From a bacterium (GTDB lineage Bacteria > UBA8248), in contig CBDBEV010000001.1 in NCBI GenBank assembly GCA_965204535.1, forward strand, positions 2,784,001-2,848,000: a DNA stretch of 64,000 nt. Reading direction: 5' to 3'. The notes under the pieces were generated by a model. It saw only the letters and a program-made list of their open reading frames with translations. It did not search any database and was not told the DNA's origin. Below are positions 2,656-44,271 of the stretch, piece after piece (within the stretch, counting starts at the first letter, position 1; each line of letters opens with the position of its first letter). The translations under genes were made by a program, and so were the position numbers.

Positions 2656-2906
2656 TCACCCCAACCTCCCCCGCAGCCACCGGAACGACTCGGGCGCCCA
2701 CTCGGTGAAGTGCTTGAAGGCGCAGTGGCCGTCATCCGGGTAGACGCGCGCCTCCCTGCCGGTCACGGGGCCGTGCTCGAGCATGTAGTAGATGTTCCCG
2801 ACCGGGGCGAGGTGATCCTGTTTTCCGTTGATCATCAAGACGGGGCAGACGATTTTCTCCACGAGGCCCAGTTCGCTGAGCGACCAGCGCTTGAACAGTG
2901 CCTCTT
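2656..2906 (-). pseudogene. duplicated 3' end (251 bp) of the alpha/beta hydrolase at 6750-7901
   Basis: colinear with 6750-7000 with scattered substitutions. Confidence 0.9.
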
Positions 2907-3061
2907 TGTAACCGGTCTGGGAATGATTTGTAGGGGAAAAGCCCGATTACCGGATTCAGCCATTATCGTTTGGCGTATAAACAACTTTCGAGATAAACTG
3001 AATTGACCTCCAAGTCAGGGGGTCGCCGCTCCACCATGCAAGTGAGATAAAGAACACTGAT

Positions 3062-3595
3062 ATGAACCTCAAACAATTAATAGAAAAAATCAAACAAAGC
3101 GCACAACATAAATATTTATATCACTTTACCGACAAGGCCAATTTTCCATCTATCTCTAGACACGGCCTATTATCAAAAGAACAACTGCGGGAAAAAGGTT
3201 GGTGGCCGCCAGATGCTACAGGCGGCAATCAGCTAAGCTGGGAACTGGATACGCTACGCGGGCTGGATCCCTATGTCAGTTTATGTATGACACGAAATCA
3301 TGGGATGAAGTATCTTGCGCAAAGAGACGGACGGCTACCCAACCCTCGTTACCTGGCGATCAATCCAGAGGTTTTAGAGATTGAAGGAGTCAGGATTGCA
3401 TTTGGTGTAGCGAACTCGACCGGCGTGGACATCCTGCCTATTGCGGAAGGTATTGATAGGCTGGATATCGAAGTATTATATTCATGGACTGACTGGTCCA
3501 ATCCTGAAATTCAGAATCGGTTACAGGCTGCAGAAAAATTAGAAATCCTAGTTCCAAATGAAGTTCCCAGAAATCTAATTGTTGGGGTCTACTAA
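3062..3595 (+). CDS. darT: DarT (DUF4433) DNA ADP-ribosyltransferase toxin, DarT1 type
   Basis: YHFT..N..SI...GLLS, YVSL, C-terminal EILV; AT-rich; coupled to a NADAR-like gene. Confidence 0.8.
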   Translation: MNLKQLIEKIKQSAQHKYLYHFTDKANFPSISRHGLLSKEQLREKGWWPPDATGGNQLSWELDTLRGLDPYVSLCMTRNHGMKYLAQRDGRLPNPRYLAINPEVLEIEGVRIAFGVANSTGVDILPIAEGIDRLDIEVLYSWTDWSNPEIQNRLQAAEKLEILVPNEVPRNLIVGVY

Positions 3596-4276
3596 ATGGC
3601 GAAGCGGCCGGTATTCTTACCCGTCTACGATGGCCAGAAGCTGGTCGAAGAACGCACATTTTCTTTTGAATGGGCACCCGGGTTTTCACCAACTCAGAAA
3701 AAAAGAAACATTCATTCCTTGCACAGCGAAGCAAAGCGCTCGGGAATTAAAACCATTCTGGAAATTTCATCCAAGTCTGATGATGAGGTTGGAAAACGAT
3801 TAAGCGCTTTCAGCCTTAAATTAGAGATTGATGGTGCTGAATTCCCGCTGGAATGTGTCTACCAAGGTTCAAAGGTTTTTGAGAACTGCGGCCCATTTCC
3901 AGATCTCTTCGAATTGCAACCTATCGAAGCGAAACGATTTATCAGAGATAGGAACTGCGGAAGACTAAAATATTTCGAGCTTGAGGGAATACAATACCCA
4001 CTTTCTTCATGCCCGCTTTCTCCAAAAAACGCTTTTTATGATTGGCTCTATATTCGATGCCTTAAGAACCACGCTCAATGGATTAGCAGTAATGTCTCAT
4101 ATGACGGTTTTACCGATATCGAGTTTAACCCAGCCAAGCAAGTCAACTGCCAGGCTCGTGCATTTGCGGAATATCTGAGTCTCCTGAAACGGTCGAAATT
4201 ACAGGACGCGGCGAACAATTTCGAATATTTCATGTCGCTGCTGAATTCGACAGAATCGCTCTTCCTGCAAGATTAA
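3596..4276 (+). CDS. DarT1-associated NADAR antitoxin
   Basis: MAKRPVF, W.PGFS..QK, LEISSKS...G..LSAF, FYDWLY, FTDIEFNP.KQVNCQAR motifs. Confidence 0.8.
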   Translation: MAKRPVFLPVYDGQKLVEERTFSFEWAPGFSPTQKKRNIHSLHSEAKRSGIKTILEISSKSDDEVGKRLSAFSLKLEIDGAEFPLECVYQGSKVFENCGPFPDLFELQPIEAKRFIRDRNCGRLKYFELEGIQYPLSSCPLSPKNAFYDWLYIRCLKNHAQWISSNVSYDGFTDIEFNPAKQVNCQARAFAEYLSLLKRSKLQDAANNFEYFMSLLNSTESLFLQD

Positions 4277-4307
4277 GAAAAAGAAAAGGTCTGTCTGAGG
4301 TCCTTCC

Positions 4308-4460
4308 GAGTTACAGTCAAATCCGGTGTATATGGCCGTCCTGAATCCAGCGGCCATCCTGTCCGTTTCTCTTTCGTCCACGCCGTTGATGAACCTTACG
4401 TCAGCGATCCCGTCTGCGAGATGGCGGAAGCCGCGTAGCTGGCGCTTCCGGTTGTTCATG
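4308..4460 (-). mobile_element. IS256-family transposase C-terminal remnant with right end (partial second copy ~6577-6680)
   Basis: KRQLRGFRHLADGIADVRFINGV..AA followed by YTGFDCNS-type end GAGTTACAGTCAAATCCGGTGTAT. Confidence 0.6.
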
Positions 4461-4528
4461 GCGGTTTTGGATAATTCCAATCCACCGCGTCCGTTTCCCA
4501 CACACTCCGAATAGCCGGATATAGCCCC

Positions 4529-4653
4529 TCACCCCAACCTCTCCCTCAACCACTTAAACGATTCGGGCGCCCATTCGGTGAAGTGCTTGAAGGCGCAGTG
4601 GCCGTCATCCGGGTAGACGCGCGCCTCCTTGCCGGTCACGGGGCCGTGTTCGA
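4529..4653 (-). pseudogene. second duplicated 3' end (125 bp) of the alpha/beta hydrolase
   Basis: colinear with 6750-6874. Confidence 0.9.
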
Positions 4654-4655
4654 AA

Positions 4656-4898
4656 CTCCAGCGCCTCTTCCACGATGAGCCGCGTGGCGAGCTTCACCAG
4701 GTCGGCTCGCGCATCGGGACTCGATAGTCGGCCTTCGATCAGGTCGGACAGGGATTGGCGAGTGTGCATCGATGCCTGTATTCTCTTCTTCATGGGGTTG
4801 CCTCCTCGGTGGGACGCCGGCGCTCACCGGCATGGTTTTGTGTTGCCTCCGCCGAGGAGGCACCCCTCCAAAGTTTCCAGCAAGTTTAGGACTTAACC
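4656..4898 (-). mobile_element. IS256-family left end and first ~45 codons
   Basis: near copy of 6332-6573, ending GGTTAAGTCCTAAACTTGCTGGAAA (minus strand). Confidence 0.75.
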
Positions 4899-5066
4899 GT
4901 CTTGCACAATTCCCCCTTTAGCGTCTAACTTGAAGGGGGGGTTCGGGAACCCGGCGCGCCAAGGGACTTGGTCGTGAACGAGTCGTCCGCGCAGGCGCGG
5001 GGCAGAGGATGGGCGAAACGGATGACGGACAGTTATCTTGTAAAACGGAATAACCGGGAGGCGATC

Positions 5067-5918
5067 ATGAGGTTTACGCTTATATGGGGTTTTGCACTGG
5101 CTCTTGCGCTGTGCTGGCCGTTAAATACTTATGGAGTAGTTAATGCAATAAAATGTAAAAGTTCGGATAATTTAAACACGTATCACTATTTCCATGAAGT
5201 GGTAAAAAAAGATGCGTCAGAAAGTAGTGCTATATACACTTTAGGTTTTATCTCTGTATGTATAGGAAAAGAAGAGGAGGGCTTGTCTCATATAAAAAGA
5301 GCTGCTGATTTGGGACATATTTTGGCTATTAAGGTATTAGGTAAATATTATATGTTTAACAAGACTTTTGACTCATCCCAAAAAAGTGACGAGCAGGAGG
5401 AATTTGATGCGGCTATTTATTATTATGAAAAGGCGGCTCAGCTGATTGAGTCCCTGCCCCGTTACCCGGAAGGTGCTACTGTGGATATAAGAGAGGGTCT
5501 TGAGTACAAAACTTTTATAAGTTATCATATATTTACATATCTACCATTGCTTTACTTGAATGGGTACAGTAGAGCTATAGGGGATATTCTGAATAATCCG
5601 GAGAGGGTTTCCTACACGGATACTTTGGAAGCATTACATAAAATGCGTGAGGCTGCTGTTCGCTGTCTTAAGAGGCCGGCTCTTTCCGCCTGGAAGGAGA
5701 AACAGGAGAGGGTGTATGAGGCGCAACAAATTAAATGTGGGGCTTCATTGGAGTTTGCTGAAACAGTTTTGCCTTTAGAGCAACAAAGGCTTCAGGTGGA
5801 AAAAAGCTGTGTTGCTCACCCCAGCCAATGCTCGGAGCATCAGCAGGTGGTGGCTGAAATGACACAGGCATTTAATAAAATGAGGGCGGAAGAAGCATTT
5901 GCTCCCAAAGATTTCTAG
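5067..5918 (+). CDS. secreted Sel1/TPR-like repeat protein, Cys-rich, AT-rich foreign gene
   Basis: signal peptide MRFTLIWGFALALALC; A.YTLG..EEGLSHIKRAADLGH.LA..LG.YY and AIYYYEKAA Sel1-like motifs; RBS GGAGG. Confidence 0.65.
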   Translation: MRFTLIWGFALALALCWPLNTYGVVNAIKCKSSDNLNTYHYFHEVVKKDASESSAIYTLGFISVCIGKEEEGLSHIKRAADLGHILAIKVLGKYYMFNKTFDSSQKSDEQEEFDAAIYYYEKAAQLIESLPRYPEGATVDIREGLEYKTFISYHIFTYLPLLYLNGYSRAIGDILNNPERVSYTDTLEALHKMREAAVRCLKRPALSAWKEKQERVYEAQQIKCGASLEFAETVLPLEQQRLQVEKSCVAHPSQCSEHQQVVAEMTQAFNKMRAEEAFAPKDF

Positions 5919-5975
5919 GTCAGTATTTTACCTGGAGTTTTTTGTTGTAATTCACAGCTTCTGAATAGATCAGCC

Positions 5976-6573
5976 TCGACGCGAACTCCTGATAGTCTTC
6001 CCAGAGGCGTTCACCGAGTTCGGAGACCACCGTGCGCGAGAGCAGAAGACGACCGCTCTCGTCGGTGAAGACGTCTTCGATGTCGCGCACCGACAGGCCG
6101 CGCGCCAGAAGTTCCACCGCCGGCCCTTCGAGCGCCTCGGTGCGCCCCTTGAGGCCCTCGCGTATCTCGGAGCGGAACCCTTCCTCGCGCCCGGCAATCT
6201 GAGGCGCCGCGTACTCGATGAACCCTTCGGCCGTCTTCAGACGACCCGGGCGGCGGCCGTTGCGGTAGCCCTGGCCGGGCTTCGCGCCGTGTTCGTAGTA
6301 CTCCCGGCCCAAAGCGTCGCGGCTCTCCGCCTCCAGCGCCTCTTCCACGATGAGCCGCGTGGCGAGCTTCACCAGATCGGCTCGCGCATCGGGACTCGAC
6401 AGACGGCCTTCGATCAAGTCGGACAGGGATTGGCGGGTATGTATCGATGCCTGTATTCTCTTCTTCATGGGGTTGCCTCCTCGGTGGGACGCCGGCGCTC
6501 ACCGGCACGGGTTCATGGTTCCTCCGCCGAGGATGCACCCCTCCAAAGTTTCCAGCAAGTTTAGGACTTAACC
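5976..6573 (-). pseudogene. truncated IS256-family transposase (N-terminal ~165 aa) with left end
   Basis: EEALEAE..LGREYYE..GYRNG..LKTAEG..ARGLSVRDIE Mutator motifs; fused to an AT-rich tail. Confidence 0.85.
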
Positions 6574-6749
6574 CCCTCCTATCCGTTTCTTTTTCGTCCG
6601 CACTATTGATGAACCTGACGTCGGCGCTTATGTCTGCGAGATGACAGAAGCCGCGTAGCTGGCGCTTTCGGTTGCTCATAGCGGATTCGGATAACTCCAA
6701 CCCATCGCGTCCGATTCCCACGCATTCCGAAAACCGGATCATTCCCACC

Positions 6750-7901
6750 TCACCCCAGCCTCTCCCGCAGCCACCGGAACGACTCCGGCGCCCACTTGGC
6801 GAAGTGCTTGAAGGCGCAGTGGCCGTCATCCGGGTAGACGCGCGCCTCCTTGCCGGTCACGGGGCCGTGCTCGAGCATGTAGTAGATGTTCCCGACGGAC
6901 GCCAGGTGATCCTGTTTTCCGTTGATCATCAGGACGGGGCAGACGATTTTCTCCACGAGACCCAGTTCGCTCAGCGACCAGCGCTTGAACAGCGCCTCTT
7001 CTTTCTCGGCCGTGGTTTCGGGAAACGAGGGGCCGTCGCCGGGCGCGCCGAAGATGTAGGCCGCGCGCCTGTTCGTGTTGGCGACGTAGTTCGCCATCTC
7101 CGCCTCCGTCATGCGGTAGCCGAAGTGGTGGCCCGCGCTCGCCACGGCGGCGCGCACCTTTTCGGGACAGGAACCCGCCAGCAGCATCACCGAATGCCCG
7201 CCCCGGCTGATGCCGAACGCGCCGATGCGCTCCGCGTCCACCTCGGGACGGGCGGCGAGGTAGTCGACCGCCGCCTTCCACGCGACGACGGATTCGGGTT
7301 CGTAGGGAAAGGGGTTCTCCCCCGTGCCGGGGCCGTCCATCACCAGGGTGGCGAGGCCGTTTTCCAGGGCCATCCCGCCCGCCCAGCCGCGGTCTTCCTT
7401 GAACATGTCCCCGCCGCACATGACGAGGACGGCGGGGGCGGGGTTTGCCGCGCTCGCTTCTTTCGGCGCGCGGAAATGGGAGGTGATGCGCTCGCCCTGG
7501 CATTCTACGCCGACGACTTCAAGCGGCGGGTCGAGATGCTCGCACGCTCTCAAGTAAGCGCGTATGCAATCCTGGTTCGCTTGTTCCTTGAGCGGTGTGA
7601 GGGGGCGGGGGAATCGCGCGAGGCTGTAGTAGGTCTTGGCGAGCAGAAACTTCTCCCGCGCGGCGCTCGTATCGCCACCGGCGGCGAGTTCTTCCGCCTG
7701 CTCTTCATAGCGCGCGCCTATCCCGCGCCATACGGGAACCCAGAGATTATCCGTCGTGCCCTTAAGAGACGCGACGGCGCCTTTCAACTCCTCGATGTCC
7801 TCGATCATGGAGAGCCACCGGCGGTAGAAGCCGCCGTGCTCCACGACGAAGGGGTCTTCGCTGGGCGCGAAGGGGAGGTTGTCAAGGGAGGATTCGTTCA
7901 T
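6750..7901 (-). CDS. alpha/beta hydrolase (FrsA/DUF1100, DHPON-hydrolase-like)
   Basis: MDGPGTGE, GISRGG nucleophile elbow, D..GH triad. Confidence 0.85.
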   Translation of the reverse strand: MNESSLDNLPFAPSEDPFVVEHGGFYRRWLSMIEDIEELKGAVASLKGTTDNLWVPVWRGIGARYEEQAEELAAGGDTSAAREKFLLAKTYYSLARFPRPLTPLKEQANQDCIRAYLRACEHLDPPLEVVGVECQGERITSHFRAPKEASAANPAPAVLVMCGGDMFKEDRGWAGGMALENGLATLVMDGPGTGENPFPYEPESVVAWKAAVDYLAARPEVDAERIGAFGISRGGHSVMLLAGSCPEKVRAAVASAGHHFGYRMTEAEMANYVANTNRRAAYIFGAPGDGPSFPETTAEKEEALFKRWSLSELGLVEKIVCPVLMINGKQDHLASVGNIYYMLEHGPVTGKEARVYPDDGHCAFKHFAKWAPESFRWLRERLG

Positions 7902-7942
7902 CGTCTCTTTCTCTGCAAAACTGTCTCAAACGCCGATGGACC

Positions 7943-8181
7943 GGGGCTGTTGAAAACCCCCTGAGAGGGGAATGGCAACCCTCTGAAAGGGAAACCCCTA
8001 AAGGCAACCCCCCCTACCCCCCCTTGTCAGGGGGGTATAAAAAGTCGATGCGCCCCCGCTGGGCCGAGGGGGGTTTTGCTTTTTCTTGCCCCCCTGACAA
8101 GGGGGGGTAGGGGGGGTTGGTTTTCCCGTCAAGAGGGGCGTCCTCTCTACCCCCGAAAAAGGGGACTTTTTCCACAGCGCC
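7943..8181. mobile_element. IS1182-end MITE carrying a CCCCCCTACCCCCCTTGTCAGGGGG palindrome pair
   Basis: ends GGGGCTGTTGAAAA / TTTTTCCACAGCGCC; flanks GGACC/GGACT. Confidence 0.75.
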
Positions 8182-10476: not shown

Positions 10477-10730
10477 AGGTCTGCTGAAAAAGCCCTCATC
10501 CTCAGGGGATAAAGGCAACCCCCCCTACCCCCCCTTGTCAGGGGGGCAAGAAAAAGCAAAACCCCCTCAACCCTGCGGGGGCGTATCGCCTTTTTATACC
10601 CCCCTGACAAGGGGGGGTAGGGGGGGTTGGTTTTCAAGGCGAGAGCCTGCGCCGCCGTCCGGTTTCGGGTTTTGGCCGTCATTCCGGCGGTGGACAATTC
10701 CGGGCCTGTGCGGACTTTTCCAACAACCCC
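10477..10730. mobile_element. IS1182-end MITE with palindrome cargo
   Basis: AGGTCTGCTGAAAAAGCCC ... GGACTTTTCCAACAACCCC; no matching target duplication. Confidence 0.65.
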
Positions 10731-13056: not shown

Positions 13057-13057
13057 G

Positions 13058-17133: not shown

Positions 17134-17163
17134 GGGGGTGGGCGCAATCACGCGCGGCAACCC

Positions 17164-17228: not shown

Positions 17229-17281
17229 CACTTCTCTCCTTCCCGGTTGGGATTGACGCTGAAACGACACCCATCTCCGTT

Positions 17282-17644
17282 TCAATCTCCTCCCGTAATC
17301 CACCGCGCGGATTCGGCGAGCCGCTCCTTCGCCCGGGTGATTTTTCCTGAGTCGACGAGCAGTTCTCCGCCCGTTTTCACCTTCTTGCCGGCGATGAAGA
17401 CGGTATCCACGTCCGAACGCTCCGCATAGAAGACGACGGCGCGGGCGGCGTCCGCCGCAGGCGTCATGGCGAGGCCGTTTTTCCGGATGAGGATGAGGTC
17501 GGCCTGCTTGCCGGGCGTGACCGAGCCGATTCTATCCGCCATGCCCATCGCGTGCGCGTTGTTGATGGTGGCCCAGGCGAGCGCGTCGCGCGCCGAAAAA
17601 GAAAGAGAGGGCGCGCGGTAGGTGTTCTCATCCAGGCGGCGGTT
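17282..17644 (-). pseudogene. duplicated 3' end of the amidohydrolase at 19351-20697
   Basis: 17298-17644 colinear with 19367-19713 (347 bp), different C-terminal tail. Confidence 0.9.
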
Positions 17645-17697
17645 AGTCTTGATTACACCCTCAACGCGGTGTAGACGAATTGATTGGCATTGACAAG

Positions 17698-18132
17698 TTA
17701 TTTCACTTTTCTTCCTTGCACCGCATCAGAGCGCAACTTGGAACCAATCTCAGATTCGACAATTTTATCGCGAAGGGTATCGATTGTATCAGTTCGGTGA
17801 ACAGGTAGATCTAGAAAGCGAGCAAACTTTTCGATTGCTACTTTGGTTGGAAATTCATTACCCAACAATTCCCTGCCCGCTTCCCGCGTTTGGGAAGCAT
17901 GTAGTTTCTCCGAGACTTCCGAAAACACAGTATCAGAATACGGATGGCGACACTTTGTAGCCATCATTCTTGATGCTGTTCTCACTTCGTAAATCCGGAG
18001 CTTACCATTGCCCCGCAATAGAGCATCGAGCTCATCTGCCGACGATCTTTCGACTAAATCCGCTAATTTCCTCAAAAGTATGCCAACGTCTCCGGCTTCG
18101 CCGGGCGACCTCTTGTTACTTTTTCTTGTCAT
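17698..18132 (-). CDS. hypothetical protein coupled to ParA-like ATPase
   Basis: 144 aa, AT-rich, ATGA overlap with the upstream gene. Confidence 0.7.
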   Translation of the reverse strand: MTRKSNKRSPGEAGDVGILLRKLADLVERSSADELDALLRGNGKLRIYEVRTASRMMATKCRHPYSDTVFSEVSEKLHASQTREAGRELLGNEFPTKVAIEKFARFLDLPVHRTDTIDTLRDKIVESEIGSKLRSDAVQGRKVK

Positions 18133-19058
18133 AGGCCTATCCCCTTGATAAAGGTGTCTGTAACGGCCTCAAGACCCGCAACGACGCTCTGGTGGCTACC
18201 AGAATTGTATCCCTTGAGAACAGGAGGAATACCGAACTGCGGAGAATCCCCAAATATTGTGTCGTTCCGCTTGATATAAGGTTCCATTACGTCAACGCCG
18301 GACAAACGGCGGGCCTGAGTAATGAACGGCCTTTGTGTTGATATAGGTTGACCTCGGTATTCCTGGATCATAGTGAACACCACATACAAAATTCTAGGAT
18401 TGATTGAATCCGTTTCTCCGCCCGCATCCAACTCAGCGTACTCATTATATTCATGAATGAGCGTGTTTGTACTCCGAATCAAATAATCTATCCCAAGTGT
18501 CGATAGATAATCAGGACGCGCAGGCACTAAAATATAGTTGCTGGCAATAATTGCGGTCTTGGTTACGATATTGAAATTTGGCGGGCAATCAATGAGCACC
18601 ACGTCGTACTTGCCCGCATCGACTTCGCTCAATCCTATAGAAAGCATGCTGTGCACGGAGATAAAATTGCGCTTGGCTTGCGTAAGGTTCGCTCCTCCCA
18701 ATTTTGTAGCCAATTCGAGATCGACGTTGATTAGGCCCAGGTGGGATGGGATCAAGTCAACCTGCCCATTTCGTGGATGTAGGATTTCCGCGATTCGGTT
18801 CGGCGTAAAGATAATGTCTGAAAGCGGTAAAGGCGTCCCGGATTCGAATGAGTCGAACCAACTTTTGATAGTTCGATCATCCGCGTAATTATCCTGCCAA
18901 TCGTCTGGAGCTATGAACGAGAACGTCAAACTCGCTTGAGCATCCAAGTCAATCATAAGTACTTTATGACCTCGCCATGCCAACTCAGCAGCGAGATTTG
19001 CCGTCAGAGTGGTTTTCCCGACACCGCCTTTATAATTGATTATTGATACGATTTCCAT
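18129..19058 (-). CDS. orphan ParA/Soj-family ATPase
   Basis: KGGVGKTT deviant Walker A, IDLDAQ, IDCPP; no parB seen. Confidence 0.85.
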   Translation of the reverse strand: MEIVSIINYKGGVGKTTLTANLAAELAWRGHKVLMIDLDAQASLTFSFIAPDDWQDNYADDRTIKSWFDSFESGTPLPLSDIIFTPNRIAEILHPRNGQVDLIPSHLGLINVDLELATKLGGANLTQAKRNFISVHSMLSIGLSEVDAGKYDVVLIDCPPNFNIVTKTAIIASNYILVPARPDYLSTLGIDYLIRSTNTLIHEYNEYAELDAGGETDSINPRILYVVFTMIQEYRGQPISTQRPFITQARRLSGVDVMEPYIKRNDTIFGDSPQFGIPPVLKGYNSGSHQSVVAGLEAVTDTFIKGIGL

Positions 19059-19350
19059 GAGGGCCAATCTTTCCTTTGCATTGGGCCGGGATTTTCATGC
19101 TGAACTTTCCAGCAATTTTAGCTTGGATTTGTCATCCTATGTCTAACTTTGGGCTAGTGAATATGTCGCAATCAATCGCAATCGTTTAGAAATTCGTTGA
19201 GATAGCCCATTTCTATCCAAGCAACAAAATCACTATTCTCAACATGACTGACCATACCCTTTTTCTTTTCGATCTTCCAGCCTTCTTTTTCGGTACTCCA
19301 GCAAAGTTGAGGATGAATTTCTCGTGTGTCTGAAGTTCGCATTGTTCCTT

Positions 19351-20697
19351 TCACCCCCCACTCCTCATCCACCGCGCGGATTCGGCGAGCCGCTCCTTCG
19401 CCCGGGCGATTTTACCTGAGTCGACGAGCAGTTCTCCGTTCGTTTTCACCTTCTCGCCGGCGATGAAGACGGTATCCACGTTCGAGCGCTCCGCATAGAA
19501 GACGACGGCGCGGGCGGCGTCTCCTGCGGGCGTCATGTTGAGGTCGTCTTTCCGGATGAGGATGAGGTCGGCCTGCTTGCCGGGCGTGACCGAGCCGATT
19601 CTCTCCGCCATGCCCATCGCGTGCGCGTTGTTGATGGTGGCCCACGCGAGCGCGTCGCGCGCCGAAAAAGAAAGAGAGGGCGCGCGGTAGGTGTTCTCAT
19701 CCAGGCGGCGGTTGTCGAATATCCGCTGGACCTGAAGCGCGTGGCGCATGGCGTGGAGCATGTTCCCGCTCACGTAGGTCTCCAGGTCCACGCCGAGAGA
19801 AGGCCTGCCGCCCAGCGCGCTCACGCGCCCGCAGACGGCCTCGCCCCGGTTCGTCTGCATCTCGGCCGAAGGCGTGGCCGTGATAGAGGCGCCCGAGTCG
19901 ATGATGATCTTTAACTCCTCATCGTCCACGTAGTTGCAGTGCACGAGGTTGTGATCGGGGCCGAGAACGCCCTCTGCGGCCAGCGTGTGGTAACCGCCCT
20001 TCACCTTTCTGCTCGCGTCGCCCCAGATGTGCGCGCTCGATAACAGCCCGTATTCCCGCGCTAGGCGCATGTCGTGAAGCGCCACATCCAACGGGGAGTA
20101 GTCGGCGCCCAGAATGGCCATCGCCAGCGTGATGAGCCCATCGTCACCAGCCAGGCGGCCTGTCCGCAGCCGCTTGATCTCGCTCGCCGGATGCGGGATT
20201 TGCGAATAGTGGGGCTCGCCCTCCCTGGGCTTCGGCTTGGGCGTTCCGTGCCCGAAAAGGGCGCGGATGCCGGATTCTTCCAGAGCGTCTATGCCGGCGT
20301 CGGTGTGTTCGGGGGTGGGGTTGTTGTGGCACCAGTCGAACAGCGTCGTGGTGCCCGCTTCCATCTGCGCCCATGCGCCCACCAGCGTCGCGATGTAGAC
20401 GTCCTCGGGCCGGTAGCGCGGGGCGAGGGTCTCATGCGCGATCTCGAAATAGCTGCGCCCGCCCCAGTCGCCGCCCAGGCCGCGAAGCGCGGTTTGCCAG
20501 GTGTGCATGTGGGCGTTGATGAGGCCGGGCAGTAGGATCATGCCGCCGGCGTCGATGGTTTCCGCGTCCGTCTCCGGGATGTTCCCGCCCACCGCGGAAA
20601 TCAGCCCGTTCTCGATTAAGACGTCGCCGCTTTCGATCTCCCCGACCTCGGGGTCCATCGAGAGAATCATCGCGTCTCGGATGAGGATTTTCGTCAT
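19351..20697 (-). CDS. amidohydrolase (Atz/Trz-SAH deaminase-like)
   Basis: PGLINAHMH, DWCH, LGVD, GSVTPGKQADL. Confidence 0.9.
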   Translation of the reverse strand: MTKILIRDAMILSMDPEVGEIESGDVLIENGLISAVGGNIPETDAETIDAGGMILLPGLINAHMHTWQTALRGLGGDWGGRSYFEIAHETLAPRYRPEDVYIATLVGAWAQMEAGTTTLFDWCHNNPTPEHTDAGIDALEESGIRALFGHGTPKPKPREGEPHYSQIPHPASEIKRLRTGRLAGDDGLITLAMAILGADYSPLDVALHDMRLAREYGLLSSAHIWGDASRKVKGGYHTLAAEGVLGPDHNLVHCNYVDDEELKIIIDSGASITATPSAEMQTNRGEAVCGRVSALGGRPSLGVDLETYVSGNMLHAMRHALQVQRIFDNRRLDENTYRAPSLSFSARDALAWATINNAHAMGMAERIGSVTPGKQADLILIRKDDLNMTPAGDAARAVVFYAERSNVDTVFIAGEKVKTNGELLVDSGKIARAKERLAESARWMRSGG

Positions 20698-20787
20698 GCG
20701 CCGCTTCCCGCCTCGGGGAATTCATCCGGTCCGCAGGGCTTTTTCATGGACAGTAATTTTGAGGGTGTTCGGTTTCCGCGCCAAATA

Positions 20788-21003
20788 TCAGATGGCTTTT
20801 ATGGAGTGAAGGGGCAGTGCTTCGGTTTCCAGCGTGGACAGGTCGACTCGCCGCGACGCGTGGTCGATGTCGAAGCCGACCACGCCACCATCGGCGGCGA
20901 TGTCCACATTGAGTCCGTCGGAAACTTCGCGCGTCTCTGTCCCCGGTTCGGTTCTGAACTCGATATAGAGGTTGTCGGTTTCGGGATAATAATGAAGTTT
21001 CAT
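20788..21003 (-). CDS. DUF2283 family putative antitoxin
   Basis: YYPETDNLYIEF..TREV..D...G.VVGFDI. Confidence 0.8.
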   Translation of the reverse strand: MKLHYYPETDNLYIEFRTEPGTETREVSDGLNVDIAADGGVVGFDIDHASRRVDLSTLETEALPLHSIKAI

Positions 21004-21251
21004 GGCACATCCTTTCTGAATCCGCGATCGAAGAAGGCGTTGTGCACGGTTTCTCCGTCAGTAAGCGTAATCACGCGGAGCATTCGTGGAGTGTCTTCCC
21101 CGGATACCGGAATCTCTCCCCAAAAGCGAATACGTCCATCCTGTTGTTCCTCGCGGCGAAGAGGTTCGCTGATGACCTCGGCGCACCATTCGCGCTCGAT
21201 GTATGGTCGCTTGCGCAAAACCTGTTCCTCGAAATATCGTGTCGTTTTCAT
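21000..21251 (-). CDS. putative RelE/BrnT-fold toxin partner of DUF2283
   Basis: RIRFWG..LRVITLTDGETVHNAFFDR; overlaps the DUF2283 gene. Confidence 0.65.
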   Translation of the reverse strand: MKTTRYFEEQVLRKRPYIEREWCAEVISEPLRREEQQDGRIRFWGEIPVSGEDTPRMLRVITLTDGETVHNAFFDRGFRKDVP

Positions 21252-21422
21252 GCGCTGTTGCCGAATATCACTTCCAATTTACTTTCTTTTTGTTTTCTTT
21301 GCACGGGAATCGGGATGATGGATGAGATTTTGCGACAGCACCCGACACTGTCCCGAGCCACACGGCGTCTTGTAGCAGATAATGTCTCCGTCTGCCAGAA
21401 ACGACGCATACCGAAGTGTTCA

Positions 21423-21501
21423 GGGTCCATCGAGAGAACCGTCGCGTTTCGGATGAGGGTTTTCGTCATGCCCCGCTTCCCGCCTCGGGGAATTCATCCG
21501 G
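21423..21501. repeat. 79-bp direct repeat of 20651-20729 (AhpD-like 3' end plus amidohydrolase 5' end)
   Basis: direct alignment; brackets the TA pair. Confidence 0.85.
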
Positions 21502-35038: not shown

Positions 35039-35042
35039 TTCG

Positions 35043-35504
35043 ATGCGCCCAGCTGGGTACTTCATCGATGCGAATCTTCTTGTCTTGCTTATCGTGGGCC
35101 GAGTGGGAGAGGAGTTCATCTCCAAACATAGTCGACTACAACAATTCGTAGTCGAAGATTACCGAATTTTGCGTAACCTGCTCGACCTTGTTGAGCAAGT
35201 GTTCGTTACCCCGAACACGCTTACCGAGACGTCCAACCTGCTTGCTCAGCACGGAGAACCCGAGCGTTCCCGCTTTTTCAATCAGCTTCAGGCTACCATT
35301 CAGGATAGCAAGGAAATACAAGTCGTCAGCAAGGTGGCTTCGCAAAACAGGGAGTTCAGGCGCCTCGGTCTGACAGATGCCGTGCTCCTGGAAGTCGCCA
35401 CTGTTGAGACGCCTTTGCTTACCGTGGACCTCGACCTTTACCTTGCGGCATTAACGAAAGACCTGGATACGGCTGTGAACTTCAGGCATATCCAAAACAT
35501 GTGA
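35043..35504 (+). CDS. PIN-domain protein
   Basis: IDANLL, TP..LTE.SN, LGLTDA, LLT.D. Confidence 0.8.
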   Translation: MRPAGYFIDANLLVLLIVGRVGEEFISKHSRLQQFVVEDYRILRNLLDLVEQVFVTPNTLTETSNLLAQHGEPERSRFFNQLQATIQDSKEIQVVSKVASQNREFRRLGLTDAVLLEVATVETPLLTVDLDLYLAALTKDLDTAVNFRHIQNM

Positions 35505-38320: not shown

Positions 38321-39248
38321 GGAGCCGGCCCCGCGCCGCGCCTCTCGCCCTGAAAGGACAGCCCCTCCTCGGGGCTGTCCAACCCCCCCTACCCCCCCTT
38401 GACGGGGCTGTTGAAAAACCCCTGGTTTTGTGATCGTATGGATGTATTCCCCCTCGCCCGAGATGGGAGTTCCGGAGATGTTGGACCGCAAGAGGCGCGA
38501 GCAGATGGACTTGTTCGTGGCCGGCCCGCTGGAGAAGTTGATTCCCGAAGATCACATATTGCGCCAGGTGGACCGCGTACTGGATTTGAGTTGGCTTCGC
38601 GAGGAAGTGGCGGCGTGCTATTGCGCGGACAACGGTCGACCGGGGATCGACCCGGAAGTGGTGATCCGGTTGATGCTGGCGGGCCTGCTGCTGGGCTACG
38701 CGGAGGACCGCCGCCTGCTGCGCGAGGCGCAGGCGCATCTGGCGGTCCGGTGGTTCATCGGGTACAGGCTGGACGAGGATTTGCCGGATCATTCGAGCCT
38801 GACGCGTATCCGCCAGCGGTGGGGGGAGGCGCGGTTCAAGGAGATATTGCGCCGCACGGTTCAGGCGTGCCTGGACGCGAAGGTGGCGAAGGGAGAAGTG
38901 GTTCACATGGACGCGTCTTTGATACGTGCGGACGTGAGCTGGGAGAGTCTGGCGGAGCGCCACGCGGAGAAGGTGGTGCGGGAGAACGACTCGGCGGATG
39001 AGACGGGGAAGAAGGGCGGTGGCGGGGGTTCGGGTCCGGTGAGCCGAACGGACCCGGACGCTCGCCTGGCGCGCAAGAGCGCTCGGGCGGGGTTCGAGCC
39101 GAGCTACAAGCACCACGCGGTGGTGGACGACGAGCGTGGGGTGGTTCTCGACGTAGAGGTGACGGAGGGGACGTTGAACGAGCGGGAGATGATGGAGCCG
39201 CAGTTGGATGCGGTTTGCGAGCTCACGGGTCGCGCGCCCGCGGTGGTG

Positions 39249-41030
39249 GAGACTGTGAAAGTATTCCCACGATTCTGGTGGGTGACGCTGGCGAGCGATG
39301 CCCGGGTTGTCTGTACATGCTATCTTTACCGGTGAGTGAGATAACCACATAAAGGGTCACCACCATGTCCGAGAGACGTTATCAGGAGGTGCAGTCCCGA
39401 AGCCAGATGATGCTGCTTCCGCCGTGTCTGGACGACTACGTGTCCGAGCACAATGCGGTGCGCGCGATCGATGCGTTCGTCGGCACGCTGGACCTGGAGG
39501 CGCTGGGGTTCGCGCATGCCGAAGCGAACTGCGGCGCCGGTCAGCCGGCTTTCGACCCGGCGCTGCTGCTGAAGCTGTATCTGTACGGCTACCAGCACCG
39601 GGTACGGAGTTCGCGCCGTCTCGAAGCGGAGACGCGGCGCAATCTGGAAGTGATCTGGCTGTGCCAGGGTGCGACGCCGAGCTACAAGACGATTGCGGAT
39701 TTTCGCAAGAACAATGTGGCTGCGCTGCAGGAGGCCAACCGGGAGTTCGTGCTGCTGTGCCGCGAACTCTCGCTGCTGGGCGGCAGCCGGGTGGCGGTCG
39801 ACGGGACTTTTTTGAAGGCCGATGCGAACCTGGACAGCTTCCAAACCAAGCGGTCCCTGGCAAGGGACCTGAGGCGTTTGGAGAAGAGGATTGCGGCGTA
39901 TCACCGGCAGTTGGACGAGGCGGATGCGCGCGGGGAGGAGTGTGGGGACGGTTCGGAGGATCCGGACCTGCCGGTGAAGCTCAAGGCCTTGATCGAGAGG
40001 CAACAAAAGAAGAAGGCACTGCAAGAGCATTTGCAGGAAAGCGGAGAGCGTCAGGTATCGGGGGTCGATGCAGATGCTCGACTTCTGAGGAACGGCGATA
40101 TAATGGTGGGCGGATACAACTGCCAGATCGCGGTGGACGACAAGCACAAGCTGATTGTCGCGGAGGATGTGGTGCAGGACGGCAATGACTCCGCTCAGTT
40201 GGAGCCGATGATGACGAAAGCCGGCGAAGCCATGGGCAGCGAACGCCTGGTCGGCCTGGCGGATTCGGGCTACTTCAACGGCGCACAGTTGAAGAGTTGC
40301 GAAGACAAGGGAATGGAGGTGTATGTTCCGATACCGAACCAGACGGCCCGCAAGGGCAAGGACGGACGATTCGGCAGCGATGAATTCCGTTACGATGCGC
40401 AGGATGACACGTATGTCTGTCCGGCCGGAGAGCGTCTGGTTCGAGGCGGCACGACCACCGTCAGGGGCAGGCTGTATTACTTTTATCGCGGGACGGCGGC
40501 GGTTTGCCGGGACTGTTCGTTGTCGGGCCGATGCCTGACAAAGTCGAGATCGACGCGCAGGATACAACGCTGGGAGCATGAGGACGTGGTGGACCGGCAT
40601 CGCAAGAAGATGAACGCCCGTGTGCCATTGATGCGCGGGCGAAGCACACTCGTCGAACATCCATTCGGTACGATCAAGCGCTGGGCGGGGATGGATCATT
40701 TTGTGATGCGCGGACTCGGCAAATGCCGCGGCGAATTCAGCCTGATGACGCTGGGTTACAACTTCAAGCGGGTCATGCGTGTGCTGGGCGGAGCTGCATT
40801 TGTGGAGCATTGTCTGCAAAAACAGCGGTTGGGGACGAATGGCGTGTGAACTTGAAGCCGATTCTTCGAGGACTTGACCGCGACCCCGAGCTGACCGGCC
40901 GCCGAGACGTTTCTCTCCCGGCTCTGCGGTGTTGTTGCTCCCGAAGTTGAAGACAGTGTCCGGCCATCGGGCTGCAAGCGTAAGCGAGCCCTGTTCCGGA
41001 GACTGTGAAATCCAATACTCTCACAGTCTC
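39249..41030 (+). mobile_element. IS1182-family element B (1782 bp)
   Basis: IRs GAGACTGTGAAAGTATT / AATACTCTCACAGTCTC; duplication CGCGGTGGTG (10 bp, or 8 bp if the ends are one base longer). Confidence 0.9.
39365..40849 (+). CDS. IS1182-family transposase (distinct subgroup)
   Basis: VRAID.FV, SSRRLE, TIADFR, VDGT, GYN.Q, ADSGY, VEHPFGTIK. Confidence 0.92.
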   Translation: MSERRYQEVQSRSQMMLLPPCLDDYVSEHNAVRAIDAFVGTLDLEALGFAHAEANCGAGQPAFDPALLLKLYLYGYQHRVRSSRRLEAETRRNLEVIWLCQGATPSYKTIADFRKNNVAALQEANREFVLLCRELSLLGGSRVAVDGTFLKADANLDSFQTKRSLARDLRRLEKRIAAYHRQLDEADARGEECGDGSEDPDLPVKLKALIERQQKKKALQEHLQESGERQVSGVDADARLLRNGDIMVGGYNCQIAVDDKHKLIVAEDVVQDGNDSAQLEPMMTKAGEAMGSERLVGLADSGYFNGAQLKSCEDKGMEVYVPIPNQTARKGKDGRFGSDEFRYDAQDDTYVCPAGERLVRGGTTTVRGRLYYFYRGTAAVCRDCSLSGRCLTKSRSTRRIQRWEHEDVVDRHRKKMNARVPLMRGRSTLVEHPFGTIKRWAGMDHFVMRGLGKCRGEFSLMTLGYNFKRVMRVLGGAAFVEHCLQKQRLGTNGV

Positions 41031-41711
41031 CGCGGTGGTGACGGCGGATTCGGGCTATGCGTATTCGAAGGTGTATGCGGGATTGGAGCGGCGGGGGGTG
41101 GACGCGGTGATACCGGCGAAGAAGGAGCCTTCCCAGAGCCGTGTTCCGCTGCAGTTGTTCCGCTACGACGAGCGGCACAAGGTGGTGAAGTGTCCGGGGG
41201 GCCAGACGCTGCGCCCCCGGAAGGAGACGGAGCGGGGGCGCTACTATGGTTCGAGGACGCGCGATTGCGCGGGGTGCGCGCTGAGGTCGGATTGTCTGCC
41301 CAAGTCGCACACGAGCAGGACGGTTCTGATTCCGCATGAATATCCGGCGCTGTTGCGCGCGCGCCGCCGGCACGCGCGCCGGGGGGAGGAGGAGGGCCGG
41401 CTGTGGCGCCGCCACATGGGGCGCTCGGAGGGCTACCACGGCGAGGCGAAGAGTCGGCACGGACTGGGGCGGGCGGTACGCCGGGGTCTTGCGAACGTGA
41501 AGATCCAGGCCTACCTGACGGCGACTGCGGTGAACCTCAAGCGGCTCGCCGCCGCTGTTGCGGCGGGTTTATTCGCCCACTGGAGGGTCTGCGCCGCCCG
41601 GAAACGCCGAATGCGCGCATATCGCGGCCTCACGCGCCGATTGGGCTTCCTCTCCGCCGCCGCGTGAGCCGCCATACCCCCTGCTTCAAAACAGGGTTTT
41701 TCAACAGCCCC

Positions 41712-42240
41712 TTGACAGGGGGGTATGAAAAGGCGGCGCCCGCCACCGAGATGAACACAAATTCACTCCCCCCTTGAGGGGGTTGTTGAAAAAGTCCGAG
41801 GAGTGAGTGTTCGACGTGAGGGGGGTGTAGGGATAGGTCGCGACCTGTCCCTACGGACGAATACGGCCGGGGAGGGTCTGGTCGTCCTTTCACCTCGATC
41901 CGCAATGTTCCCGTAGGGGCGGCCCCCTGTGGCCGCCCTGCCCCGTGGCTACGCTTCGCAGGGACAGGCACGGGGGCCTGTCCCTACAAACCCTTTACTT
42001 GCAGGGTGCTGTGCGGACTTTTTCAACAGCCTCCAAGGCGGGAGTGAATCCTTTTTTTGCGGGGGTTGCTTTTTTTACCCCCCTGTCAAGGGGGGTAGGG
42101 GGGGTTGGTTTTCAAACCGGCGGGCGGCCTCATTCGCCGTAGCGAAGCCTCGCCATCGCGCCTGCGCTGCGTGAACCTCCATGCCGCCGATCCCGAAACG
42201 GGGTTTTTCAACAACCTCGTCAAGGGGGTTAGGGGGTTGA
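41712..42240. repeat. nested palindrome/MITE cluster; 41908-42164 duplicates 42988-43242 including the recombinase 3' end
   Basis: direct alignment; TCATTCGCCGTAGCGAAGCCTCGCCATCGCGCC present twice. Confidence 0.8.
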
Positions 42241-42281
42241 ACCCGACCGGGGAGGGAGGGTTCGCGGCAAGCGCAGTTCGA

Positions 42282-42548
42282 CTACCTGGTTCGCTCGATG
42301 AGTTCGCGCAAAGAGGCCATCGCCTCCTCGTGCCTGTGTTTGGAATCTTCCTCCCTGCGGCGAGACTCGGCCATGGCCTCGTCGTGCTTGGCCATCGCCT
42401 CACGGTGCTTGCGCTCCGAATCGTCGGCGCGCATGGCGGCGTTCCTGTCCATCGTGCGGATGCCGTGGTAGATGAGGCCGAGGCCGGCGTAGGCGGCTGC
42501 GAGGTTCAGGTAGGCGGCGATGAGGTTGAGGTATTCGGACGACGTCAT
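42282..42548 (-). CDS. small membrane-anchored coiled-coil protein with HxxxM repeats
   Basis: one hydrophobic segment; HREAM/HDEAM/HEEAM; LRELIERT end shared with 48041-48604. Confidence 0.7.
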   Translation of the reverse strand: MTSSEYLNLIAAYLNLAAAYAGLGLIYHGIRTMDRNAAMRADDSERKHREAMAKHDEAMAESRRREEDSKHRHEEAMASLRELIERTR

Positions 42549-42653
42549 GGGTTTTCCCCGGAGTGGGCCACATGGAACTCTCGCGTATATTCAGTATAAA
42601 AAGAGGTTCCGCCCATCGTCAAACCCCGCGGGGCGGGGACCCGGGCCCACTCG

Positions 42654-43190
42654 CTCTCGCCCTGAAAGGACAGCCCCTCCTCGGGGCTGTCCAACCCCCC
42701 CTACCCCCCCTTGACAGGGGGGTATGAAAAGGCGGCGCCCGCCACCGAGATGAACGCAAATTCACTCCCCCCTTGAGGGGGAGTCAGTGAGCTAGGGGCG
42801 TAAGCCCCGCAAGCGAACTGGTGGGGGGAGTTTTTTCTGTGGCATGTCCCCCCACCGAATCGGCCTTCGCCAAGGCTCGGCCTCTTCGTCGGGCTTTCCC
42901 CTCGGGAAGCCCGACCCTCAAGGGGCTGTTGAATAACCCCTCGTCGAGCGGAATTGATTGCCGGAATGACAATCAAAAGCACATTCACCCGTAGGGGCGG
43001 CCCCCTGTGGCCGCCCTGCCCCGTGGCTACGCTTCGCAGGGACAGGCACGGGGGCCTGTCCCTACAAACCCTTTACTTGCAGGGTGCTGTGCGGACTTTT
43101 TCAACAGACCCTCAAGGGGGGAGTTGATCTTTTTTGGCGGGGGTTGCTTTTTCATACCCCCCTGTCAAGGGGGGGTAGGGGGGGTTGGTT
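42654..43190. repeat. nested palindrome cluster containing MITE 42922-43110
   Basis: CTCAA duplicated at 42917-21 and 43111-15. Confidence 0.8.
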
Positions 43191-43209
43191 TTCGAGCTGG
43201 CGGGCGGCC

Positions 43210-44271
43210 TCATTCGCCGTAGCGAAGCCTCGCCATCGCGCCCTGTTTCGCGAGCTGGCCCTGCGCGTAGCGCCCCGGCATGGTCGGCGACTGCCAGCGC
43301 CCGGCGATTTGCATCTCGACCAGCGACGCCCCCGCCGTGGCCAGGCTCTGCGCGCTGCCCACGCGCAGGCTGTGCCCGCTGATGCGCCCCTCCACGCCCG
43401 CGTCCCGGGCGCGCTGGATGATGATGCGCCGGATGCTCCTCTCCGTCAGGCGGCCTTCCCGCAGCCGGCCCCCCTTGAACAGCGGCCGGAACAGCGGCCC
43501 CTTCGTCAGGCCTGCCTCCAGAAGCCAGGACCGGACGCGCGCCACCGTCGGCTCGCCCAGAAACTGCACGACGCCCTCGCCCTCCTGGTCCGTCTTCGAG
43601 CGGCGGATCAGCACCGTCTGCTCGTCGAGGTCCACGTCCTCGATGTCGAGCGCCTCGACCTCCGACACCCGGAGCAGGGCGTCGCTCGCCACCGCCACGA
43701 TCGCCGCGTCGCGCAGGCCCCCCAGGGTCCCCGTCCCCTCGGCCAGCGCCGCCGCGCGGTCCGCCTGCTCCCAGCGCACCCCCACCACCTGGCCGCGGCC
43801 GCGCTCTGCGGCCAGGCGCCTGAAGCCGGCCAGCACCCGCTCCGAGGCCGCCCCCGCCGGAGAGGGCCGGCCGTTCAGCTTCGCCCGGAAGCGAAGCGCC
43901 GCGACCGCCATCGCGGCCACGGCCGCCGAGTGCCCCTGTTCGTAGAGATCCCCCAGGTACGCCGCTATCCCGGCGTCGGTCTCGGGGTTTCCCGAGCGCT
44001 CGAACCTCCGCAGGGCCGTCTCGTACACTCGCCGCGTGTTCTTAGACATCGACGCCTTCGCCAGGTCGGCGGCCGCACGGGCCGGTCGGGCCGGCCTTCT
44101 CGTCAAAGCGATGTCCTGTTCTGGGTCGGGCGGTGTTGCCCCAGTCGTCATGGCGAGAAGCCAACCTTCTAGGTCAGCGGCCGTTTCCATTCCCTGAGGC
44201 CGTCCGAGCGCCTCGTTACGCTCAAGGGCCTCGTCAAATACCGAGTATAGACGACGGCGGGAAATTTCCAA
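43210..44271 (-). CDS. Cre-like tyrosine recombinase
   Basis: RDAA..LR.SE, RRSKTDQ, GHSLRVG, GRW, terminal RY; start uncertain (44271, 44190 or ~44151). Confidence 0.92.
   Translation of the reverse strand: MEISRRRLYSVFDEALERNEALGRPQGMETAADLEGWLLAMTTGATPPDPEQDIALTRRPARPARAAADLAKASMSKNTRRVYETALRRFERSGNPETDAGIAAYLGDLYEQGHSAAVAAMAVAALRFRAKLNGRPSPAGAASERVLAGFRRLAAERGRGQVVGVRWEQADRAAALAEGTGTLGGLRDAAIVAVASDALLRVSEVEALDIEDVDLDEQTVLIRRSKTDQEGEGVVQFLGEPTVARVRSWLLEAGLTKGPLFRPLFKGGRLREGRLTERSIRRIIIQRARDAGVEGRISGHSLRVGSAQSLATAGASLVEMQIAGRWQSPTMPGRYAQGQLAKQGAMARLRYGE

Follow-up and report, generated by a model that had tools for sequence, protein, structure and literature searches.

Insertions between duplicated gene ends in a Nitrospinota genome: a generalised, apparently allele-like variant of a known scar

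Introduction

In insertions with long target duplication, an insert of <20 kb that contains no mobile-element gene lies between variable direct repeats of 40-400 bp, and relatives hold the empty site, as set out in the accessible text of Furuta, Abe and Kobayashi (2010; PMC2853133); the accessible part of PMC3154945 cites Nobusato et al. (2000) for such insertions. In the former text the repeats often span a start or stop codon and the gene survives, the hosts are mostly naturally competent, the two copies are not identical (for example 195/208 and 384/412 in Table 3), and a virus-like cycle is proposed for restriction-modification (RM) genes without evidence of release or re-entry. Here, we describe five cargo segments, each lying between direct repeats, in a window of 64,000 nucleotides (G000:C2:2784001-2848000) of the metagenome-assembled Nitrospinota genome G000, together with a census of comparable gene-end copies in the whole genome. 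These structures are a generalised variant of the known scar, allele-like as judged by comparison of the paired copies, and not a new machine. The initial annotation of the window had considered an undescribed capture route, which falls away in view of PMC2853133, where this arrangement is already described, repeats across start or stop codons included.

As in PMC2853133, the repeats are longer than 30 bp (82-365 bp in the window) with one copy at the empty site, and the inserts are below 20 kb (606-7,194 bp in 28 intervals). A single-locus repeat and the lack of a mobile-element gene are also shared by the DarT-NADAR, ParA and DUF2283 cases of the window and by the census set, whereas the 243-bp IS256 repeat and the fifth case depart from this description. 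The published class requires an RM pair in the insert, whereas none is present in the five window cases, and only two type II RM cargos were found genome-wide (one clear pair, Eco29kI-type with a methylase, and one methylase with an unassigned partner). Because the window inserts lack restriction plus modification genes, they represent the general structure and not the RM-defined class. In addition, the published insertions are ascribed to DNA breaks made by RM systems, whereas the cargo here consists mostly of toxin-antitoxin (TA), Abi, DarT-NADAR, repeat-protein and metabolic genes, about two dozen insertions occur in one genome and are stacked at the same genes, and the copies tested are allele-like.

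Other described processes share parts of this architecture. In the accessible part of Amarir-Bouhram et al. (2011; PMC3240628), circularisation of linear DNA in E. coli and a single crossover yielded gene-end duplications of 109-950 bp in 56 of 60 clones, more commonly than homology-facilitated illegitimate recombination; gene-end homology and partial duplications around the insert are common to that study and ours, whereas it used a laboratory plasmid delivered by conjugation, with identical homology and no natural cargo, and for the present cases a circle is a putative intermediate. Homology-facilitated illegitimate recombination, defined in the same text as one homologous anchor combined with one illegitimate joint, resembles the present cases in both elements but predicts deletion of the target, which is here duplicated. 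Unconventional circularizable structures, according to the accessible text of PMC7843796, carry cargo between long direct repeats without a recombinase and form a circle with one repeat, excision being detected by PCR; they match the present cases in the recombinase-free cargo and long direct repeats and differ in that their near-identical repeats surround resistance genes inside mobile elements. Johnston et al. (2013; PMC3784515) describe, in the part accessible, transformation merodiploids formed by interchromatid integration, in which incoming DNA pairs at a repeated segment and leaves a duplication joint without a transposase; that process needs pre-existing chromosomal repeats, duplicates 100-900 kb of host DNA and brings in no foreign cargo. 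Gene gains are linked to recombination in flanking genes in PMC12359135, whose accessible text does not use the word 'duplication'. Our literature searches, which left most subscription papers outside their coverage, found no paper deriving such scars from allele exchange. Site-specific islands differ in that no insert here has an integrase in or beside it (0/28), only the fifth window case adjoining one, and in that no att core is shared (23 joints).

Materials and Methods

The host genome comprises 4.56 Mb in two contigs, with 5.26% contamination and a G+C content (GC) of 60.5%. Identical-scoring extra matches on both contigs (DprA at G000:C1:212005 and C2:11292, a recombinase at C1:219684 and C2:32911) suggest a duplicated region of tens of kb common to both. 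Genes were called with a hexamer model (3,068 genes), which missed some AT-rich genes. The comparison set consisted of 22 genomes of the same genus, with DNA identity of 78-97%. A metagenome scan found no conspecific locus, the best match having 89% protein identity, and an Rfam scan of the window found a single tRNA and nothing else. Unitigs of the runs X21 and X22, among which the source sample may be, and of X1, a sponge metagenome from another study, served as read-set evidence; runs with small word shares (X2-X19, X23 and X24) and X20, whose coverage was too shallow, were excluded.

The self-alignment census covered locus-unique repeats of ≥40 bp within 12 kb. For substitution analysis, 21 gene-end pairs were chosen by eye out of 45 repeats, the rest being repeat proteins, intergenic or element-linked. 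The expectation for neutral decay of an identical copy (~65% replacement differences, ratio ~0.6) was obtained by hand arithmetic. The monooxygenase tree included all 32 copies >900 bp, and two partial ones were excluded.

Results

Duplicated gene ends around cargo in the window

The five repeat pairs proposed by the initial annotation are all present in self-alignment, as direct repeats of 82-365 bp at 92.7-94.5% identity. Clean duplications of host gene ends account for three of the five (the DarT-NADAR, ParA and DUF2283 cases), and these three repeats (254, 365 and 82 bp) are each unique to their own locus genome-wide. The claim that host gene ends are duplicated thus holds for these cases and fails for the other two, whose repeats are an IS256 end and a recombinase tail joined to a palindromic mosaic. 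Features of the five cases lie on the reverse (-) strand unless marked (+).

The first anchor is an intact gene for an alpha/beta hydrolase (FrsA-like; 383 aa, PF06500; 6750..7901). Its working repeat (last 254 bp + 3; 6747-7000) recurs at 2653-2906 as an orphan 3′ end of 254 bp at 94.5% identity, which stops 3 bp beyond the stop codon and shows 9 silent and 5 replacement differences. The cargo next to this orphan (2907..4353; GC ~0.46) encodes a DarT toxin (3062-3595, +) and a NADAR antitoxin (3596-4276, +), with matches to PF14487, PF22397 and PADLOC DarT.

The second anchor, an intact amidohydrolase gene (448 aa, PF01979; 19351..20697) found in 16/20 congener loci, is duplicated at both ends. 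Its orphan 3′ end (17280..17644) is a direct repeat of 365 bp with 93.4% identity to 19349-19713 and shows 8 silent and 16 replacement differences. The cargo between them (17645..19348; GC 0.46) encodes a ParA-family ATPase (18129-19067, PF13614) and a 144-aa partner (17698-18132) that matches only unnamed clusters; a weak PADLOC match of the ATPase to PDC-M28B (3e-8) was not accepted as identifying a defence gene. The same cargo contains a stop-ended stretch of 57 codons (19172-19345), which the initial annotation had taken, with 5920-5973, for the broken ends of donor neighbour genes. Both are AT-rich, stop-ended open stretches for which no source gene was found, the search with the former being weak and the latter being too short for searching.

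At the start of the amidohydrolase gene, the working copy of the 82-bp repeat (20648..20729) is matched at 92.7% by an upstream copy (21420..21501), which consists of the genuine 3′ end of the upstream AhpD-related gene and a dead amidohydrolase start. The intervening cargo (20730..21419) encodes an 83-aa open reading frame (ORF; 21000-21251) without a family match and a DUF2283 protein (20788-21003, PF10049), which are likely to be a TA pair. The AhpD-related gene itself appears to be split by TGA into two ORFs (21466-21834 and 21865-22116, -); the second matches '(seleno)protein' models and the genome has a tRNA-Sec, and the two ORFs may form one selenoprotein.

Two composite cases

The case that the initial annotation had called Sel1-like is nested in the hydrolase locus. 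Its 243-bp repeat (4656-4898/6331-6573, 94.2%) is the cut left end of an element of the IS256 insertion sequence (IS) family, with 8 genome matches (PF00872 and NF033543 on the longer piece), and does not support the claim of a duplicated gene end. The true duplication around this cargo is instead a 127-bp hydrolase tail with an IS256 right-end remnant (4354-4653/6574-6874; 302 bp, 85%). This tail, the third in the locus and the second orphan (4527..4653), is 90.6% identical to the working copy, with 9 silent and 3 replacement differences. The remnant directly behind it (4304..4526) corresponds to the 3′ terminus of a full-length element located at G000:C1:753338-754740, and a sister remnant (6574-6746) lies behind the intact hydrolase gene. 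The cargo is an AT-rich ORF of 283 aa (5067..5918, +) with 7 unnamed relatives at 38-77%; it has no Pfam or NCBIfam match, and the label 'Sel1-like' is abandoned. On its other side lie the 5′ 600 bp of an IS256-family element (5974..6573); the element is truncated at 5974, where its reading frame continues into an AT-rich tail that stops at 5920. Followed in the direction of the hydrolase gene, the order is hydrolase, IS remnant, truncated IS, the 283-aa gene, truncated IS, 127-bp tail, IS remnant, NADAR, DarT and 254-bp tail. At 4653/4656, where the 127-bp orphan meets the cut IS256 piece, both parents share two adjoining bases and the window has two different ones.

The fifth case has the same shape as the others, but its anchor is a multi-copy tyrosine recombinase gene (43210..44271; PF00589, at least 8 near-copies). 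The direct repeat (41910-42162/42988-43242; 256 bp, 94.5%) has a working copy that overlaps the recombinase stop (42988..43242) and an orphan copy (41910..42162) that consists of the last 33 bp of the recombinase gene and a palindromic-repeat mosaic. Because the repeat includes these 33 bp, the fifth case is not integrase-free, and the claim of integrase-free cargo does not extend to it. The cargo is an 88-aa helical-repeat protein (42282..42548) with no Pfam or NCBIfam match and 10 other family matches in the genome by tblastn. At the corresponding spot, G002 carries the recombinase with a single tail and without the 88-aa gene, and has its own 216-bp repeat and other repeat shuffling.

Genome-wide census

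A genome-wide self-alignment of the kind proposed in the initial annotation yielded 66 locus-unique direct repeats against 3 inverted ones, an excess over chance. A gene-centred census of the 3,068 genes found 40 partial copies. Of these, 23 are orphan 3′ ends (19 genes), every one downstream and on the same strand. Orphan 5′ ends number 5 on the same strand, which without exception lie upstream, and 1 on the opposite strand; the other 11 copies are mid-gene. As had been claimed for the window, the host gene is left intact: the same-strand terminal copies are in the gene-sparing orientation in 28/28 cases and in the other in none. Homology ends ≤9 bp from the stop codon in 15/23; in the others it extends into flanks common to both copies, at most over an entire duplicated gene. 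The 28 cargo intervals have a median length of 1.6 kb, and 14 of them are below 57% GC. No tyrosine recombinase lies inside any of the 28, the nearest of the 42 matches in the genome being 3.6 kb away, and no large-serine-recombinase domain was found in the genome. The absence of an att core was likewise borne out, the best 4-, 5- and 6-mers being shared among 23 joints at random level (P ~0.2).

Predicted defence and TA cargo comprises type II RM genes, AbiE, PDC-M57, NYN/HEC-09, RelB, HicB, BrnTA, HepT-nucleotidyltransferase and HigBA, with DUF5678, DUF1902 and Sel1/TPR proteins as further cargo. The cargo is therefore rich in TA and defence genes, as proposed earlier (Pfam/NCBIfam and PADLOC matches), 'rich' here implying no comparison with background. 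Other cargos carry an asparaginase, a CobW cluster, a binding protein, a hydantoinase, an amidase, and second alleles of a monooxygenase and a permease. Among 13 long tandem gene pairs inspected, 2 (comM and an ABC permease) start within the tail of the preceding gene, in keeping with this architecture; the remaining pairs are plain tandem paralogues and were dropped as candidate captures. As an outside-genus control, 47 loci (0.56 Mb) gave 2 locus-unique repeats, 1 of them of the 3′-end type (a Nitrospinae record), a sample too small to show enrichment over ~5 per Mb.

Three further observations were made in the genome. At G000:C2:2623369-2624362, a tmRNA 3′ end is duplicated (65 bp) around an 865-bp insert without an integrase. 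TA-like pairs for which no duplication was detected lie in the window at 240-851, 16677-17133 and 34754-35504 (HigBA, RHH-ParE and one unassigned pair). A 901-aa lipoprotein-like gene is present in tandem at G000:C2:561570-567108 with 99.9% identity, as a very recent duplication or an assembly echo.

Assembly of the joints and distribution of filled and empty alleles

Chimeric assembly of co-occurring strains might be suspected in a metagenome-assembled genome with the contamination noted above. Unitigs of X21 and X22, however, match 2773-4604, 4869-6059, 17615-19396 and 19684-22000 with 0 differences, that is, across joints in two samples (with only 30 letters on the short side of the 17644 joint), and identical joints occur in up to 5 other species per locus. 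The chimera that the initial annotation had named as a possible refutation is therefore not borne out; it is already largely refuted, and we regard it as having almost no chance of being correct. Depth in X22 is 14-19 over cargo and 12-15 over the core. No cargo-skipping or circle joint is among those listed for X21 and X22, whose contigs drop rare variants. In X1, depth is near zero over the DarT-NADAR and ParA cargo and 10-20 on the flanks; X1 nevertheless matches 16851-17310, including the tail of the amidohydrolase orphan, with 0 differences, and its 3 listed hydrolase variants are the orphan bases.

Inspection of relatives for empty alleles, likewise suggested at the outset, revealed single-copy alleles at all three clean cases. 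The hydrolase has one tail in 18/19 congeners whose locus reached it, and the whole DarT-NADAR cassette is absent from the 22 congeners searched; G016 carries a 174-bp orphan around a different gene, so that hydrolase orphans of 254, 127 and 174 bp accompany three cargos. The ParA cargo with its joint occurs only in G011 among 16 congeners, the amidohydrolase end being single-copy in 15/16. The DUF2283 insertion is whole in G002, G013 and G016 and partly deleted in G011, G012 and G014, with a single copy in 10/16. At 7 other loci checked in 5 relatives, overlapping single-copy matches were found at 6/7, and the AbiE locus holds other inserts. Filled, empty and otherwise-filled alleles are thus patchily distributed (these 7 loci in 5 relatives, 4 loci in up to 22), and G000 itself has an empty allele at 26849, a site with an orphan in 5 relatives. 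Almost every relative has different cargo at the sites behind the hydrolase and the amidohydrolase (L021-L032, L041-L051), including IetAS, a PIN domain, an SDH protease, a tyrosinase, a phospholipase A2 domain, ParD and an ABC-adenine deaminase cluster.

Relationship between the paired copies

Comparison of the paired copies indicates that they are probably alleles of different lineages, in agreement with the origin from related lineages that had been proposed at the outset. The 21 pairs show 99 silent differences (488 sites) and 92 replacement differences (1,569 sites), a pN/pS of 0.29. In 11 loci, pN/pS is 0.26 between working gene and orphan and 0.19 between working gene and true orthologue, and 41/93 differences (44%) are replacements. 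Orphan variants are present in the working genes of relatives in 13/14 (254-bp hydrolase orphan), 11/12 (127-bp orphan) and 22/24 (amidohydrolase) instances. In the orphans of the amidohydrolase, mutase, arginase and transketolase genes, the differences are skewed towards replacements. In the assemblies of other species, single-copy amidohydrolase genes resemble the working copy over the first 230-260 bp of the repeat and the orphan thereafter (p 0.0004), and the p value for such a switch inside the repeat is 0.003 when 10 pairs, this one included, are pooled. G002 shares the arginase joint, with variants partly swapped between its copies, a pattern consistent with a different crossover or conversion. 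In 5 loci for which relatives with a recipient-type flank exist, this flank is retained behind the orphan, the target being duplicated and not deleted.

Origin of the joints and transfer at comM

Three cargos begin or end with flank that is native to the same gene elsewhere (the IS remnant of the hydrolase, in G016; the upstream flank of a metallophosphoesterase; a lactamase stub behind the asparaginase), and these therefore represent another lineage's neighbourhood of the same gene. The binding-protein cargo behind a mutase gene is common to 6 genomes and located elsewhere in G020 and G013; relative to this other context, the joint has a 3-bp microhomology. For ~14 joints, the genomes compared offer no second context of the cargo end in which microhomology could be read.

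One clade carries two monooxygenase alleles at comM with a 156-bp orphan between them. The same joint is present in G008, although the comM gene of G008 groups with single-copy species. The proximal monooxygenase of G008 falls within the other clade with 100/100 support, placement in its own clade being rejected (p-AU 1.4e-4); the distal copy groups with the single gene of G004 (100/100), and grouping of both G008 copies together is rejected (p-AU 7e-139). From these trees, a ready-made comM joint crossed species, G008 keeping its own downstream gene.

Other mobile and repeat elements

Two IS1182-like transposase genes (DUF772 and DDE) lie in the window at 22705-24242 and 38393-41723; the second is split by another IS (39365-40849) of which at least 11 further copies exist at 99-100% identity, and the nested pair recurs at G000:C2:1234249-1237579. 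The tyrosine recombinase family of the fifth case (43210-44271; L186-L189) has at least 8 near-identical, very GC-rich and scattered members, several with a convergent HTH_17 gene, and with large unknown or repeat proteins upstream; it looks like a small self-moving element. The 42 tyrosine recombinase matches of the genome, many of them in adjacent pairs, are an unusually heavy load. The family of the 88-aa protein (42282-42548; G000:C2:1315500-1317900, 2869108-2869802) has at least 11 matches of 60-100 aa, some in tandem arrays, with a hydrophobic N-terminus and helical repeats. Palindromic-repeat mosaics occur at 7940-8160, 10500-10645, 41700-43200, 47100-49100 and 51550-52050; their families (GTAG-hairpin type, C-run hairpins and IS-end-like pieces) have hundreds of genome copies, but a Y1 transposase is matched just once in the genome, and partially. 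The G016 genome has a 1.76-kb tandem pair of 84% identity (L361 706-4739) downstream of its ctpA gene, possibly another captured allele.

Discussion

We consider it probable, with some reserve, that these structures are insertions with long target duplication that arise by a rare illegitimate birth and then spread among congeners by RecA-type recombination, without a dedicated recombinase. At birth, an illegitimate joint with 0-3 shared bases would connect the distal end of a DNA block with some position within the preceding gene, either because an incoming fragment circularises and undergoes one crossover or through duplication during repair. Only gene-sparing geometries are observed, and we propose that this is because insertions that break the gene are purged. 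During spread, which the comM data partly document, the duplicated gene end would serve as portable homology by which host recombination carries the block with its joint into congeners. The recipient's own downstream DNA would then stay behind the orphan, the two copies would be alleles of different lineages, and homology would stop where the lineages cease to be alike, usually at the stop codon. Repeated rounds would stack cargo at the same genes, and later deletions would trim the orphans. A single-crossover circle and linear DNA with the orphan as right homology arm explain the observed product equally well; uptake by natural transformation, RecA dependence, circular intermediates and pop-out are steps that we infer. 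The cut-off was exceeded by ComEC in 22/23, DprA in 23/23 and ComM in 22/23 genomes of the genus, MutS is intact in 22/23, and Ku was not found in G000.

Several results weigh against this explanation. Competence genes also match in 8-10/14 control genomes, and with MutS intact, crossovers within 60-100 bp of 85-94% identity would be expected to be impeded. No foreign allele is seen in the youngest case, ctpA (G000:C1:175872-180633; 404 bp at 99.0%, 4 differences, reaching 246 bp past the stop codon), which is present in G000 only. Compared with G002 and G012, the G000 joint at the transketolase gene reflects a deletion at a near-repeat of 12 bp, and since left edges of orphans can be trimmed later, unequal lengths do not prove separate births. 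At comM, sister status of the two linked monooxygenase clades is not rejected (p-AU 0.07), and the G008 locus is a multi-part mosaic. The switch inside the repeat has a p of 0.09 without the amidohydrolase, 7/10 pairs show no trend alone, and a count over relatives with a proven orphan-type flank is flat (33:15 proximal, 42:16 distal). The same hybrid signal would also result from gene conversion or from pop-out in an ancestor that carried the cargo. Within the 11-locus set, the amidohydrolase also has the least silent pattern (6 silent and 11 replacement differences).

The ctpA case in particular recalls a simpler course of events, in which break repair or template switching copies the host gene end at insertion, the copies drift or the working gene is overwritten by allele exchange, and the joint is never transferred. 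Both ctpA copies are of host type, ~13% from the nearest relative, and the cargo genes sit elsewhere in G014; likewise, 51-bp identical copies occur at the HicB locus, the binding-protein cargo is truncated on both sides compared with its setting in G020, old orphans (mutase, transketolase and arginase) carry more replacements, and the scheme is close to the model in the accessible text of PMC2853133. Neutral decay should, however, have given ~65% replacements instead of the 44% seen, the orphans have almost no private variants, a random insertion point does not predict homology that ends so near the stop codon in most pairs, and the G008 joint crossed species. As a full account such pure duplication thus appears unlikely, although it may well be the birth step. 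A restriction cut made by the cargo cannot be the general cause, because most cargos encode no nuclease. The two-step explanation of birth and spread is preferred because the G008 joint crossed species while the ctpA copies are host-type and orphans get trimmed.

Silent divergence and an edge at the stop codon are established features of elements that target coding genes, and both would be explained if the inserts were remnants of site-specific elements that carried a replacement 3′ end of the target and whose integrase was later lost or acts in trans. The 42 tyrosine recombinase matches, one of them touching the fifth case, the tmRNA 3′ duplication, comM as an anchor, and one transketolase cargo that ends in sequence also found beside recombinase clusters are in keeping with this possibility. 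The anchors of the 3′ class are, however, 19 unrelated genes, 5′-end cases also exist, the cargo is small (median 1.6 kb), none of the 28 contains a recombinase or remnant, no core motif was found, and the amidohydrolase switch lies ~230-260 bp inside the repeat and not at its edge, so that we judge this origin improbable. About as doubtful, or slightly more so, is capture by a transposon or palindromic repeat, in which an IS256, IS1182-like or Y1 transposase would move neighbouring DNA and leave long variable duplications. IS256 pieces do occur inside the hydrolase stack, the fifth case is made of palindromic repeats and has a repeat of its own (216 bp) in G002, and stop regions of the anchors are slightly G-rich (0.40 vs 0.32, p 0.04); but the IS pieces are cut mid-gene at the joints and not at element ends, most cargos lack element ends, the genome has only the one partial Y1 transposase match, and duplications made by a transposase, being identical at birth, would not look allelic.

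The question of how insertions with long target duplication form dates back to 2000, and the published idea invokes restriction enzymes. In this genus each genome offers about two dozen cases, of which most lack a nuclease; filled and empty alleles are available from 22 relatives, one case is very young and one joint has crossed species. These cases shift the likely cause to host recombination. Small defence islets can therefore be found by orphan gene ends alone. A bolder extension, which we hold to be possible but doubtful, is that any cargo, once bounded by a duplicated gene end, becomes a self-addressed cassette that requires none of its own genes for movement; it would pop out or travel as linear DNA and re-enter the same gene in congeners, such that co-hosted symbiont species would share a decentralised, reversible defence library spread over dozens of ordinary gene ends. 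If this is true, self-addressed cassettes would be a general channel of gene flow that is missed by island finders based on integrases or transposases.

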